Part shown: positions 42,844 to 46,099 of the stretch, piece after piece
How positions within the stretch are numbered: the stretch's first letter is position 1
Layout: every line of letters begins with the position of its first letter
Virus record (IMG/VR): IMGVR_UViG_3300030376_005812
Location: 1-50,046 of that record
Reading direction: 5' to 3' (one strand)
Length of the DNA: 50,046 nt
Origin: a virus
Taxonomy: Duplodnaviria; Caudoviricetes
The notes under the pieces: model-generated
Told to the model about the DNA's origin: nothing
What the model saw: only the letters and a program-made list of their open reading frames with translations
Databases searched by the model: none
Made by a program: the position numbers and the translations under genes

Positions 42844-43590
42844 ATGTCGTACATGAAGAGAGTTTACGAAGACAAACTCAACATACATCTAGATCAGTTT
42901 CCTTCTCGACCAGACTGCACCATGTGTGAGCTGCACGAAGAAGCAACCAATCCCGGTGTGCCCACTGTATGGTGGCACGAGTCAAGGGATCCATTCGAAG
43001 ATGTACCCATCCTCATCGTGCTCGGTATGAATCCGGGTTACCAAGAGGACAAGAAAAACCAACCATTCATCGGACCCTCAGGCCAGCTGCTCAAGGGTCC
43101 TTACCTCAAGGGATCAAAGCTCAATGAAGTTGCCTGCGTATACTTTGCAAACGCTGCTCGATGTTGGACCCCAAGTGCAAGTCCCCCCCGTCGAAAGCAT
43201 TTCAAGTCTTGTTTCGAACACACTATTGTGGACGCAAACAACATCGTCCGTGCTCGACGAGATGCAAAAGTTGCTTGGCTGTGTTGTGGAGCAGCAGCAG
43301 TTGACTCCCTCTCATCAGCCTTACTGCCCTCCCGAATCAATCTGTCGGGATCTTTCAAAGCTCAGTCGTTGCCTTTTGATCTTGTCGGACGTGATGCTGA
43401 GGGTCAGCTCGAAGCAGCCGGAAGGCAGTGCAATCTCTTTGCCACTTACCATCCCGCTGCAGTCCTTCGAAATCCTAACCTCATCCATGCCGTCGCAGAC
43501 CACCTCGCCCTCCTCCACTCCTACCTCGAAGGAACCATCCCAGTCCCAAGCAAGCCTACCTTGGTACCGCCAAGAGCCCCAGAATCCTAA
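42844..43590 (+). CDS. Uracil-DNA glycosylase family 4-like protein (SPO1 polymerase-associated type)
   Basis: CTMC, GMNPG..ED..PFIGPSGQLL, NAARC, KSC and TYHPAAVLR; four Fe-S cysteines are retained. Confidence 0.85.
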   Translation: MSYMKRVYEDKLNIHLDQFPSRPDCTMCELHEEATNPGVPTVWWHESRDPFEDVPILIVLGMNPGYQEDKKNQPFIGPSGQLLKGPYLKGSKLNEVACVYFANAARCWTPSASPPRRKHFKSCFEHTIVDANNIVRARRDAKVAWLCCGAAAVDSLSSALLPSRINLSGSFKAQSLPFDLVGRDAEGQLEAAGRQCNLFATYHPAAVLRNPNLIHAVADHLALLHSYLEGTIPVPSKPTLVPPRAPES

Positions 43591-43618
43591 GCACGTTCTA
43601 CCTCAAGAGGAGTAGAAG

Positions 43619-46099
43619 ATGACAAGCCCAAGGGTAATCTCACTCGACATCGAATCGTATGGCGCGTGCCATGCCAACAGTGAAGGCAAGCTTCTGCCCG
43701 AACAGAAGCTGTTCAATCCCTTGAGGTCCATGCACACTGACGGTGTGACAAGAGATGATCTTGTTCTTACTGTCGCAATTACCCTGCCGGAGTACGACCC
43801 CCGATGCAACTCTTCCTTCCCGGATTCGAAGACTACGATCACGAACTCGACATCGACTTCCAAGACCAAGTTAGTGACAGACTCGAACAGATCGCAGACT
43901 TCCTCATGTCAAGAGCAAACCAAACAGGACTCAGTCCCTTGGAGCTGCTCTACACTAGCGGCATTATCACCCGCGACGAGCATGGTCTTCCAGATGTCAG
44001 TCGAATCCCACCGGACCCTCTTGAGGAAGTGGCTCCAACACTCAAATACCATCCTTGGGATGAACCTACAGTTTGACATCCAGTACCTTCGCCAGCTTCC
44101 AGACTTCAGGTTTGTCCTTGATGGCCGACAAACTCTCATCGACCTTTCGGTCGTCAACTACATCCACAACGAGCTGCGCCCAGAGAAGTCACTCAAGTCT
44201 CTGGGTCCGGTTCTTGGCACCCACACCTACGAGCAAACAATAAAAGACGGTCGCTTCAAGAGCCCTAAAGACGCAGAGATTATTTCCTACAACGCGCAAG
44301 ACACTCACAATACAATGTTGTGTGTCTCTGAGCTTGCCAAAAGAATCTTGAAAGATCAGCCATGCCCGACCAACACCCAGTCCATCTCTTCGATAGAGAC
44401 ATTACCTTCTCCCTCAACTTCAACGGAGAGAGTTTCCGACTCAGAGCCAAGGACCTCAAGCAGTGCTTCAAGGAAGTCTTCGCTCACCCTCAGCTCTGGG
44501 CCAAGCCCATCGGTGGAGACCACACAATCTTCGACGAGTTGCCTGCCACCTCCATCGACATCAGCAAGTTCACTCTCAACTTCATCGCACTCGCAGCTTG
44601 CACCGTGTCCGAAAACCTTGATGAAGAGTTTAGCCGAGACGAAAGAGAGTAAGCTCTCCCCCCAAAGTATCGAGCATTACTCCGACACCATCTGGTCATG
44701 TATCACCATGTCAGAGTCGGGTATCCCCATGTCCTTTGACCTACTCAACAAGCAGCTAAAGAACCTGACTTTCAAGTGTGAGATTGCAGCGCGAGTATCC
44801 AAGAGCAAGTACAATCTTGTGCTCGAAGGAAAAGGCTCAGCCAAGTCAAAGCAGGAGTTCATTGACGAGATCATCGAAGAGATCGACAGTCACTCCTCCA
44901 TCGACATCCTCAGCCACCCCCTGCTTTCCCTTACTCCCAAGACGAAAAAGATCTCATGGTCCGAGGACAATCGCAATCTACTCTCATCCTACCTGCCGAA
45001 GGATCATCGACTGCAGTCTGCTATCAGGGTAGTGAAGTACCATGCTTCAGCACAGAAGTTGATCTCGACCTACCTGTACCCCCTGCTGAAACACAGGAGG
45101 AACAGACCACAGGACAAGTCATCGGTACTTATTCCGTTCTCGAAGGAGATTGGTTTAGCTCACCCGACGTGGTACATAGTTCCATCCCTGCCCAAGGACA
45201 CAGGATCGGAAGGCGGGACGATACAAGGCCGTATCACCTGCAAGAGTCCATCAGCTCAGACCTTTCCTCCCCCCATCAAGAAGGCGATGAAGTCCCGTTG
45301 GACTAACGGTTCGATCATTGGCTTCGACTTGTCACAGATCGAGCTTCGTGTTGCTGCCCTGTTGTCAGGTGATGACAAGCTGATCCAATCATTCACCGAG
45401 GGTCTCGACCTACACACCGACAGAACGGTGTCAGTCTTTGGCGAAGACATTCAGTCCGACCCCCAGTTCAAATCCAAGTGGCGACAGATCGGCAAGACCC
45501 TGAACTTTGCCGACCTCTTCTTGGCATCAGCCTCACGTATGCAGCGCACCGTTGTCGAAATGTGTGGCGACCTTATGCCCATTCCTTTCTTCAACAACAT
45601 CGTCAAGACCCGATACCTCCAACGACCCGGCCTCTGCTCTTGGCAGTACGAACTTGCCTGTGTTGCAGAGACCCAAGGCACCCTCGTACTTCCGATAACC
45701 GGACAGTCCCGCACCTTTACCAGCTTCGAAGTTGACCACACCAAGTGGGATCGCAATCGAATCGTGGCTCCTGTCTACAACAAGAACTTCAAGTCACTGC
45801 TCAATGAAGTAGTAAACTTCCCCATTCAGACGACAGCTGGCAATGTTCTTCTTCAAATCCAGCACAACTTAAATAGAATGATGGGGTCAATGAACCGCGT
45901 AGGCAGACGGCCCCTTATGTTCCTTCAGGTTTATGACGCGGTATACTTCGACTGTCCCACGGAGCAGGTCTCTGACCTTGAGGAAATGATTTCGAATGCT
46001 GTCGATCTGGTGGTTCATGGTGGTGGTTATTGGAATCAGCTGCAGCAGATCTTTCAGCGCACTGTCCCAGTGCTGTACGAAGTCGAGCAGGTCTCTTGA
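43619..46099 (+). CDS. polA: DNA polymerase family A (3'-5' exonuclease and polymerase domains, no 5'-3' exonuclease)
   Basis: ExoI LDIES, ExoII NLQFD, ExoIII YNAQD; TIQGRITCKSP, motif A DLSQIELR, motif B RQIGKTLNF, NFPIQ and motif C QVYDA. Confidence 0.92.
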   Translation: MTSPRVISLDIESYGACHANSEGKLLPEQKLFNPLRSMHTDGVTRDDLVLTVAITLPEYDPRCNSSFPDSKTTITNSTSTSKTKLVTDSNRSQTSSCQEQTKQDSVPWSCSTLAALSPATSMVFQMSVESHRTLLRKWLQHSNTILGMNLQFDIQYLRQLPDFRFVLDGRQTLIDLSVVNYIHNELRPEKSLKSLGPVLGTHTYEQTIKDGRFKSPKDAEIISYNAQDTHNTMLCVSELAKRILKDQPCPTNTQSISSIETLPSPSTSTERVSDSEPRTSSSASRKSSLTLSSGPSPSVETTQSSTSCLPPPSTSASSLSTSSHSQLAPCPKTLMKSLAETKESKLSPQSIEHYSDTIWSCITMSESGIPMSFDLLNKQLKNLTFKCEIAARVSKSKYNLVLEGKGSAKSKQEFIDEIIEEIDSHSSIDILSHPLLSLTPKTKKISWSEDNRNLLSSYLPKDHRLQSAIRVVKYHASAQKLISTYLYPLLKHRRNRPQDKSSVLIPFSKEIGLAHPTWYIVPSLPKDTGSEGGTIQGRITCKSPSAQTFPPPIKKAMKSRWTNGSIIGFDLSQIELRVAALLSGDDKLIQSFTEGLDLHTDRTVSVFGEDIQSDPQFKSKWRQIGKTLNFADLFLASASRMQRTVVEMCGDLMPIPFFNNIVKTRYLQRPGLCSWQYELACVAETQGTLVLPITGQSRTFTSFEVDHTKWDRNRIVAPVYNKNFKSLLNEVVNFPIQTTAGNVLLQIQHNLNRMMGSMNRVGRRPLMFLQVYDAVYFDCPTEQVSDLEEMISNAVDLVVHGGGYWNQLQQIFQRTVPVLYEVEQVS
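43804..44076 (+). CDS. Candidate nested gene 1 inside polA (90 aa, acidic)
   Basis: ATG-to-TGA ORF in an alternate frame; GGAG 11 nt upstream; begins where the polymerase turns Ser/Thr-rich. Confidence 0.55.
   Translation: MQLFLPGFEDYDHELDIDFQDQVSDRLEQIADFLMSRANQTGLSPLELLYTSGIITRDEHGLPDVSRIPPDPLEEVAPTLKYHPWDEPTV
44362..44652 (+). CDS. Candidate nested gene 2 inside polA (96 aa)
   Basis: ATG-to-TAA ORF in an alternate frame that matches the Ser/Thr linker end to end; GAAAGA upstream as for genes at 39006 and 40010. Confidence 0.65.
   Translation: MPDQHPVHLFDRDITFSLNFNGESFRLRAKDLKQCFKEVFAHPQLWAKPIGGDHTIFDELPATSIDISKFTLNFIALAACTVSENLDEEFSRDERE

Follow-up and report, generated by a model that had tools for sequence, protein, structure and literature searches.

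The DNA polymerase gene of an uncultured marine phage very probably holds a second, smaller protein-coding gene in a different reading frame. The phage is represented by the IMG/VR virus record IMGVR_UViG_3300030376_005812, a stretch of 50,046 bases estimated to be 98% complete (complete or nearly so), and its full length is the window analysed here. The host gene (positions 43,619–46,099, plus strand) encodes PolA, a family-A DNA polymerase of 826 amino acids (aa) with a 3'-5' exonuclease domain (Pfam DNA_pol_A, E 3.3e-24). Nested open reading frame 1 (ORF1; 43,804–44,076, plus strand) lies wholly within this gene, on the same strand and in the +2 frame relative to PolA, and encodes an acidic product of 90 aa. 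The first half of ORF1 occupies a Ser/Thr-rich insertion in PolA, and the second half runs on over ancestral exonuclease sequence. The architecture of the gene and the selection acting on it are the solid part of the account presented here, while the function of the product is proposed with low confidence.

Position and persistence of the nested frame

ORF1 begins with the ATG at 43,804 and ends with the TGA at 44,074–44,076, and the coordinates in the initial annotation, which had placed the frame in the proofreading domain of PolA, are right on the sequence. Both signals are built from PolA codons. The stop combines the last T of the TTT codon for F152 (44,072–44,074) with the GA of the GAC codon for D153 (44,075–44,077), in the string CAG-TTT-GAC, and is contained in the ExoII motif (N149–D153; 44,063–44,077, plus strand), where it falls inside the Q-F-D codons as originally described. 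Several lineages without the insertion encode the ExoII Phe with TTC, and hence the stop is not formed there. The start combines the last A of one PolA codon with the TG of the following Cys or Trp codon (43,802–43,807), an arrangement of the type NNA-TG(C/G) that recurs at the start of a second nested frame, ORF2 (44,360–44,365), treated below. The residue pairs involved are R-C or R-W for ORF1 and P-C or E-C for ORF2 (sites of the window and of the related loci L003, L004, L016 and L017). The Cys or Trp is conserved at the head of otherwise variable Ser/Thr-rich PolA segments because it builds the nested ATG. L004, which has no ORF1, carries an out-of-frame ATG at the equivalent spot that opens an ORF of only five codons.

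Alignment with insert-less relatives places insertion 1 at C63–P107 of PolA (43,805–43,939, plus strand), corresponding to ORF1 codons 1–45, and codons 46–90 lie over ancestral PolA sequence from W108 to F152/D153 (43,940–44,076, plus strand). The earlier description of ORF1 as part insert and part ordinary exonuclease sequence was thus correct in kind, and its lengths of 55–60 and about 30 codons are replaced by the 45 and 45 that homology gives; the larger figure for the insert arose because the Ser/Thr-rich composition continues to about nested codon 59. That composition was recognized correctly, with Ser and Thr making up 44% of insertion 1 when read in the PolA frame, compared with 21% for the whole of PolA. 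The same applies to the ORF1 product, which begins MQLFLPGF and is acidic, with an isoelectric point of 4.09 and 19 Asp and Glu residues versus five Lys and Arg.

Relatives of PolA were gathered as 11 loci from a scan of viral contigs and 51 more from a metagenome scan, with PolA identities to the window ranging from 100% down to about 40%; a collection of annotated phages held no close relative (best PolA identity <30%). The window stretch was itself detected in runs of 15 studies, and the same nested structure recurs in independently assembled contigs of several collections. The ExoI motif (I7–G15; 43,637–43,663, plus strand; D10, I11 and E12 invariant), ExoII and ExoIII are invariant across 16 aligned PolA relatives. 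The distance between ExoI and ExoII was measured in 59 sequences having both motifs (58 loci and the window; 38 distinct), plus L016 and L049, and three loci were excluded from the frame analyses, namely L008 (C-terminus only), L062 (23% identical) and L063 (without ExoII). The baseline distance is 273–300 nucleotides (nt), and it rises to 423–435 nt in the four lineages that bear insertion 1, the length of which varies from 123 to 150 nt across lineages. These four ORF1-bearing lineages are the window clade (the window, L001/L014/L021, L002, L015, L024 and L013), L016/L049, L003/L018/L022/L023 and L017/L026, a modest sample with close pairs for only some of the lineages. L004/L019/L020/L025 and L047 lack insertion 1, as do all PolA relatives at greater distance.

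All 16 of the 16 other insertion-bearing loci retain the ATG, the open frame and the same TGA, as do all seven protein clusters predicted by public gene callers. Neither a lost ATG nor variable stop positions, two of the signs by which the initial annotation would have had the gene rejected, was seen in those 16 loci. A Shine-Dalgarno-like GGAG (43,789–43,792, plus strand), also noticed at the outset, is formed by the P57-E58 codons of PolA and lies 11 nt before the ATG. The extended string CCGGAG is kept in all four ORF1-bearing lineages, whereas insert-less relatives have P-K or P-S at this point, and other long ORFs of the window phage also show upstream spacings of 10–12 nt. The PolA frame is open in every lineage through insertion 1 and through a further insertion that holds ORF2, and the differences in PolA length between lineages are all multiples of three. 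Given that the host frame is maintained through it, the insertion is evidently translated and not removed.

From its distribution, insertion 1 appears to have arisen once, in a surface loop between ExoI and ExoII, in the ancestor of one marine-phage sub-clade. In a quick maximum-likelihood tree of 24 of the 64 sequences (distinct representatives, with the insertion-2 columns left unmasked), the lineage that has only insertion 2 is sister to the lineages with both insertions, a topology compatible with one gain of each; insertion 2 was acquired earlier than insertion 1. Divergence of the insertion sequences equals or exceeds that of the flanking PolA, their branching order is that of the PolA tree, and identities of ORF1 between lineages (31–52%) lie below those of PolA (66–70%). 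The quick construction of the tree limits its support for a single gain, as does L047, a 199-aa fragment without insertion 1 whose position in the tree is unsettled.

Extra sequence is also found in this loop outside the sub-clade. L028 (1,677–1,994) and its relatives L029, L030, L050 and L059, with a PolA ~45% identical to that of the window, have a different insertion of 174 nt between ExoI and ExoII, with a +2 frame that stays open over 105 aa, starting at an ATG and closing with the same ExoII TGA. The variable sites of this clade are at PolA position 3, and its nested peptide varies freely, without conservation. An open +2 frame by itself consequently proves nothing, as the L028 clade has one without conservation of the nested frame. 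The synonymous codon choice of the L028 PolA before ExoII is atypical, which may reflect a codon-table mismatch. L046 (424–618) has about eight extra codons at the same loop and a +2 ORF of 64 aa with an ATG derived from an R-W pair at the homologous position; the ORF continues past ExoII, where the Phe codon is TTC and the TGA is not formed, and it may be a proto-form or a coincidence.

Selection on the two frames

The window and seven near-identical loci differ at eight sites in insertion 1, which are distributed 0/7/1 over PolA codon positions 1/2/3. The seven sites at PolA position 2 are third positions of the nested frame, where six are silent in ORF1 and one exchanges D for E, and all seven alter a PolA residue; the eighth site is silent in PolA and changes Q to E in ORF1. 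The parts that encode only PolA contain 89 variable sites, with 71 at position 3 and eight at position 2. By Fisher's test, the displacement of variation from position 3 onto position 2 has p = 3.7e-6 for insertion 1 and 1e-7 when the two insertions are combined. This pattern is not accounted for by diversifying selection on the PolA loop because positions 1 and 2 would be hit alike, and the counts at these positions are 0 versus 7 in insertion 1 and 1 versus 15 in insertion 2 of the L004 clade.

Pairwise comparison of the insertion part with NG86 gave four synonymous and no nonsynonymous differences in the nested frame between the window and L001, versus none and four in PolA, and the corresponding figures for the window and L002 were four and one versus one and four. 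Between L017 and L026 the nested frame differs by five synonymous and three nonsynonymous changes, with a ratio of nonsynonymous to synonymous differences per site (pN/pS) of 0.16, compared with 1.41 for PolA; the ratios for L003 and L017 are 0.46 and 0.94, respectively. In close pairs the nested pN/pS is thus 0–0.16 and that of PolA 1.25–1.41, indicating purifying selection on the nested frame. Deeper pairs are saturated in both frames.

The openness of the frame and its codon usage were assessed separately from the variation. Given the PolA peptide and the codon usage of the phage, the nested frame is free of stops by chance in 0.4–2.3% of synonymous recodings per lineage, with 3.5–4.6 stops expected, and in the converse simulation, given the nested protein, the PolA frame is open in 7–29% per lineage. 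Both frames are open across insertion 1 in all four lineages. Codon log-odds, trained on 28 other long ORFs of the window phage, are +0.238 per codon in the nested frame of insertion 1 and −0.065 in the PolA frame, and segments of real genes average 0.257. A reversal of the +2 frame over the main frame as large as this is seen in none of 635 control segments of 45 codons from those genes. The length of the ORF is not evidence on its own, because alternative-frame ORFs of 80–160 aa are common in this genome with its C-rich coding strand. The combined patterns strongly support the nested frame as the selected coding frame within insertion 1, and the Ser/Thr-rich PolA reading of the same sequence evolves about neutrally and is presumably a disordered loop.

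The overlapped tail (43,940–44,076) behaves differently, and here PolA is clearly the dominant constraint, with an NG86 pN/pS of 0.31–0.49. The nested frame has no stops in the tail of any of the four lineages, where 1.5–2.2 are expected in each and the probability of none is 8–18% each, and insert-less relatives mostly carry one to three stops in this zone. A test of PolA synonymous codon choice, which took in 15 of the 64 sequences, found it abnormally poor over the 40 codons before the ExoII Phe in the window (p = 0.004), L003 (0.013) and L017 (0.007), with values of 0.007, 0.022 and 0.003 when compared with stop-free recodings; L016 gave p = 0.09. Codon choice in the tail is normal in L004, L019, L005, L033, L007, L009 and L011, as is the downstream control of each lineage. 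The tail of the window clade holds two variable sites in 137 nt compared with 3–5% elsewhere, and the ratio of +2-frame identity to PolA identity in the tail is above that of control segments in five of six pairs.

Several observations weigh against selection on the encoded tail. Its nested pN/pS is 0.97–2.57, a value biased upward because the nested silent sites are second positions of PolA. L028, L046 and L006 are also abnormal in the codon-choice test, possibly through a codon usage of their own, and the test applies the codon table of the window phage to other phages. Between L003 and L017, synonymous divergence of PolA in the tail is 0.31 versus 0.17–0.26 in the flanks and is not reduced, and the tail sequence of ORF1 is itself poorly conserved. 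The tail could be an unconstrained run-on. With regard to suppressed synonymous variation of PolA, which the initial annotation had proposed as a check on the tail, variation is low in the window clade and synonymous divergence is not reduced between L003 and L017; the proposal that the sequence is partly inserted and partly dual-coding is strongly supported for the insertion and moderately for the tail. On balance we lean slightly towards selection on the amino acids of the tail, and selection to keep the tail open is somewhat more likely than that. The tail may represent partial overprinting on a catalytic domain, and a hairpin in the predicted folded core of the ORF1 protein probably comes from it. 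Conservation of ORF1 is highest at residues about 56–64 (43,970–43,990 of the window), where an acidic loop resembling D-x-D-G-x-P-D lies over the codons for T-M-V-F-Q of PolA.

ORF2 (96 aa; 44,362–44,652, plus strand) is located further downstream in the same +2 frame and shows every signal of ORF1 more strongly. It fills insertion 2, a segment of ~279 nt between the exonuclease and polymerase domains that is present in the four ORF1 lineages and in L004/L019/L020/L025, which are without insertion 1. The ORF2 protein is conserved at 21–39% identity in five lineages, including L004/L019 without ORF1, the nested pN/pS is 0–0.18 in close pairs, and the codon log-odds are +0.25 in the nested frame and −0.23 in PolA. 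The two nested proteins are unrelated by hhalign (probability 0.3%), and the window holds no paralogue or second copy of either. Also in the +2 frame, a third ORF of 116 aa (44,956–45,306, plus strand) lies in a highly conserved part of PolA and has 82-aa counterparts in L004 and L019. The +2 log-odds over 44,653–45,400 are −0.21, and variable sites downstream of insertion 2 fall 9/8/56 by PolA position; this ORF is probably a by-product of the C-rich strand.

Expression and competing explanations

The simplest reading of the sequence is that ORF1 is expressed by internal initiation. Ribosomes on the polymerase mRNA would start at the ATG at 43,804, assembled from the last base of a PolA Arg codon and the TG of a Cys codon, with the GGAG of the Pro-Glu codons 11 nt upstream. 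Translation would then leave the insertion and run for 45 further codons over ancestral exonuclease sequence to the TGA provided by the ExoII Phe-Asp codons, while ribosomes making PolA would read through insertion 1 as a stop-free Ser/Thr-rich stretch. In L003, L017 and L016 a +2-frame stop is located 0–2 codons before the ATG, and a C-run preceding the ATG is found in the window clade and not in these three lineages. Entry into ORF1 by frameshifting is implausible given these preceding stops and the lack of conservation of the C-run. RNA structure around the two nested ATGs is nothing special (z-scores −0.8 to +0.85). A 159-nt contig from the marine metatranscriptome run X20 covers 43,759–43,898, including the 5' edge of insertion 1, is 95–99% alike and has no skip, and a DNA contig of another study (record 2 of X2) spans the whole of insertion 1. 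Among the low-depth contigs recovered, none joins across insertion 1 and no additional variants were found. The X20 contig also contains an 'opposite strands' joint, probably an assembly artefact.

Some points weigh against ORF1 being an expressed gene with a role of its own. The four ORF1 lineages share ancestry, and their open frames are not independent observations. The 11-nt spacing of the GGAG is rather long, and PolA codons impose a constraint of their own on the site. The X20 contig may be carried-over DNA and is silent on the reading frame. In addition, no homologue, family or fold was found for the product, so that any function rests on composition and context.

The fact that alternative-frame ORFs of 80–160 aa are common in the genome raises the question of whether ORF1 is a chance product, left open on a C-rich strand in the alternative frame of a low-complexity Ser/Thr loop of PolA. 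The L028-clade insertion with its open 105-aa +2 ORF, albeit one with variable sites on PolA position 3, and the failure to find homologues or a fold would agree with such an origin. It is contradicted by the codon-position shift (p = 3.7e-6), by a nested pN/pS of 0–0.16 in close pairs with that of PolA above 1, by codon usage that is gene-like only in the nested frame (0 of 635 control segments comparable) and by the 0.4–2.3% chance of an open frame per lineage, and diversifying selection on PolA, which should hit positions 1 and 2 alike, does not account for counts of 0 versus 7. We consider the chance origin strongly disfavoured and highly improbable. An explanation in which PolA itself is recoded or spliced, with the ribosome shifting to +2 and back or the insertion acting as an intron or intein, would make sense of a nested frame that resembles an ordinary folded polypeptide next to a PolA reading that resembles filler. 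The C-run just before the ATG in the window could be taken as a shift site, and there are phage polymerase genes with introns, SPO1 gene 31 being annotated with an 'exon junction'. However, the C-run is not conserved in L003, L017 and L016, where a stop is found 0–2 codons upstream of the ATG, and the ATG is conserved at both nested starts in every lineage without being needed by a shift model. Splicing is at odds with a PolA frame that is kept open with length differences in multiples of three, with the lack of Rfam matches (none at E ≤ 1 over 43,500–44,900), of an intein or Hint family by Pfam on PolA (only DNA_pol_A) and of any contig joining across, and ORF1 moreover extends 45 codons past the insertion. 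Recoding or splicing is, in our opinion, extremely unlikely.

The most serious relative of the observed architecture comes from actinobacteriophages, where the ShiLan domain and the Pacc40 insertion are read-through insertions in DNA methylase genes with a hidden out-of-frame HNH endonuclease (PMC11855218). By analogy, the insertion in PolA would be or have been mobile, sparing the PolA frame and hiding an ORF for its own spread by homing or DNA binding. The layout matches the one outlined for those two insertions, ORF2 fills insertion 2 almost exactly, the same PolA loop has unrelated insertions in L028 and L046, and L047 is without insertion 1 and yet unsettled among the ORF1 clades in the tree. 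On the other hand, no HNH, GIY-YIG or other nuclease was detected with Pfam (E ≤ 0.1) or PHROGs (E ≤ 1), and the invariant residues of ORF1 and ORF2 are not catalytic-looking. Divergence at least as high as that of the flanking PolA, together with PolA-like branching, indicates that inheritance was vertical, without a trace of recent transfer, and there are no copies elsewhere in the genome and no free-standing or fused homologues among those searched. The distribution is not disjoint in the manner of a homing element, since the insertion-bearing clade is one side of a branch of the PolA tree, with the placement of L047 unsettled. A selfish element of this type is improbable, and ORF1 as a selected gene nested in the polymerase gene is the reading pursued below.

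Product, precedents and gene neighbourhood

ORF1 and ORF2, searched from three to four lineages each, matched no family in Pfam (E ≤ 0.1) or PHROGs (E ≤ 1), nuclease families included; PHROG rows at E 0.025–0.36 were disregarded. A profile of ORF1 run against proteins of 49–165 aa retrieved only nested copies, in seven clusters. Against 1.84 billion proteins of all lengths it retrieved three representatives, again nested copies, and three weak matches (E 8e-6 to 2e-4) to Calx-beta or Ig-repeat adhesins, which match the acidic D-x-D-G-type loop and were treated as spurious. The ORF2 profile retrieved six clusters of nested copies, and none among longer proteins, the latter being a weak test.

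In AlphaFold2 (AF2) models the mean predicted local distance difference test (pLDDT) score is 68 for ORF1 and 72 for ORF2, the latter with a predicted template modelling score (pTM) of 0.59. ORF1 is modelled with a disordered N-terminus, a helix over residues 17–41, a short helix over 45–51, a hairpin-like element and a disordered C-terminus. Its pLDDT by block is 83–89 over residues 21–60 and 73 over 61–70, and the confident part crosses the boundary of the insertion. ORF2 is modelled as a small alpha/beta domain followed by a long C-terminal helix. Foldseek against the PDB returned nothing at E ≤ 0.001 for either protein, and the best Z-scores in a wide VIA-align search were 4.4 for ORF1 and 5.0 for ORF2, below a meaningful level. 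The ESM Atlas held no usable match for ORF1, and its matches for ORF2, fungal domains of unknown function that share fewer features than the guide value, were treated as chance. A winged-helix or excisionase-like identity for ORF1 was considered and gains no support from the structure searches. The prediction of a PolA–ORF1 complex from alignments returned a score of 0.00 and no answer, which is evidence neither way. The only invariant residues in the insertion part of ORF1 are M1, L15, E28 and I30, which are not catalytic-looking, and those of ORF2 are hydrophobic or structural; a conserved His/Cys/Asn pattern is absent from both alignments.

The product of ORF1 would be made together with the replication proteins, and we suggest, with low confidence, that it is a non-enzymatic, protein-binding factor acting when the replication genes are expressed. 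From composition and context, a tentative candidate role is that of an accessory protein or modulator acting through protein binding on replication or on a host factor, and an anti-host or anti-defence function is a possible, still speculative one. A more specific idea, raised by the initial annotation, is that the N-terminal MQLFLPGF binds the sliding clamp. The clamp-binding consensus has the form QL[SD]LF or QLxLxL. The Q-L-x-L-P of the window N-terminus resembles it, 10 of the 11 ORF1 sequences aligned retain Q2 and L5, and the N-terminus is modelled as disordered, as is usual for short linear motifs. However, the motif as a whole is not conserved among the 11 sequences. The L017 type has Pro at its second position, the L003 and L017 types end it with Asp or Glu instead of a hydrophobic residue, and no part of it is shared by L016. 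Moreover, the 10 replication-side ORFs scanned included neither a clamp nor a clamp-loader gene. Clamp binding through this motif is very improbable.

We found no description in the literature of a nested gene in a phage family-A polymerase. Same-strand embedded genes with internal initiation are otherwise well known from phages, with Rz1 inside Rz of lambda and B in A and E in D of phiX174 as classical cases. ORF1 is similar in being a small gene contained entirely in a larger gene on the same strand, in a different frame, with internal initiation that is deduced here from the sequence. It differs in that Rz1 and the phiX174 genes B and E overlap ancestral sequence throughout, whereas PolA does not otherwise need the sequence that holds half of ORF1 and almost the whole of ORF2. 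A second point of comparison is offered by the introns, inteins and homing genes of phage polymerase genes, such as the SPO1 gene 31 intron, where ORF-bearing sequence also interrupts the polymerase gene at a tolerated site. In the present case, by contrast, there is no RNA family match, splicing domain or skipping contig among those searched, and the host frame is kept.

The closest parallels are the ShiLan domain and the Pacc40 insertion (PMC11855218). As there, an insertion in a phage enzyme gene leaves a stop-free host frame with an unassignable or disordered host reading, the ORF in the second frame has its start a few bases inside the insertion, no features of an intron or intein can be detected, and tolerance of the added loop is predicted for the host protein. 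ORF1 and ORF2 stand apart in lacking relatives elsewhere and any match to a nuclease or DNA-binding family, in an inheritance that looks vertical with purifying selection ongoing, and in the presence of an ATG with an upstream GGAG. Two unrelated hidden ORFs in one essential replication gene, and an ORF1 that extends 45 codons past its insertion over catalytic-domain sequence, are further differences.

Eukaryotic viruses provide a different analogy. In apple stem grooving virus (ASGV), the movement protein is nested in the linker between RNA-dependent RNA polymerase and coat protein, and the polymerase spacer of hepatitis B virus (HBV) lies over preS (PMC8227390). Similar to these overlaps, the polymerase frame is a tolerant, fast-evolving linker and the other frame is more conserved, a case of asymmetric evolution, and disorder in one frame relieves the conflict between frames. 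Those viruses are small eukaryotic RNA or reverse-transcribing viruses under genome compaction, unlike the 50-kb tailed-phage-type genome studied here, in which intergenic space is available. Also unlike them, the linker in this family-A DNA polymerase is an insertion of recent origin that is specific to the lineage.

Gene callers and curators regard a polymerase ORF that is long and well annotated as fully explained, and two further selected genes appear to be hidden inside this one. The combination of a read-through insertion and a hidden ORF would thereby be extended from the homing endonucleases of actinophage methylase genes to orphan, non-nuclease proteins, and to an essential replication gene in abundant marine phages. 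The system also offers what looks like a clean natural case of asymmetric overlap evolution, with the host frame reduced to Ser/Thr filler. The shift in codon position of variable sites within lineage-specific insertions is a simple and scalable method for finding hidden genes. It is conceivable, if doubtful, that the polymerase gene has served as a nursery for new genes, in which two loop expansions gave rise to +2-frame orphans and the core of ORF1 was overprinted on the exonuclease, and in the boldest version of this idea both products modulate PolA. If the nested proteins are accessory subunits or modulators of PolA, their co-inheritance and co-expression with it would be guaranteed.

PolA is encoded in a replication-type neighbourhood. 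A UDG-family gene is located directly upstream, and genes for a primase/helicase, a Sak4-like annealing protein and an ERCC4-type nuclease are found nearby together with a sigma-like gene; a clamp or clamp-loader gene was not among the 10 replication-side ORFs scanned. A further alternative-frame ORF of 163 aa (43,124–43,615, plus strand) overlaps the UDG-family gene (42,844–43,590) upstream of PolA.

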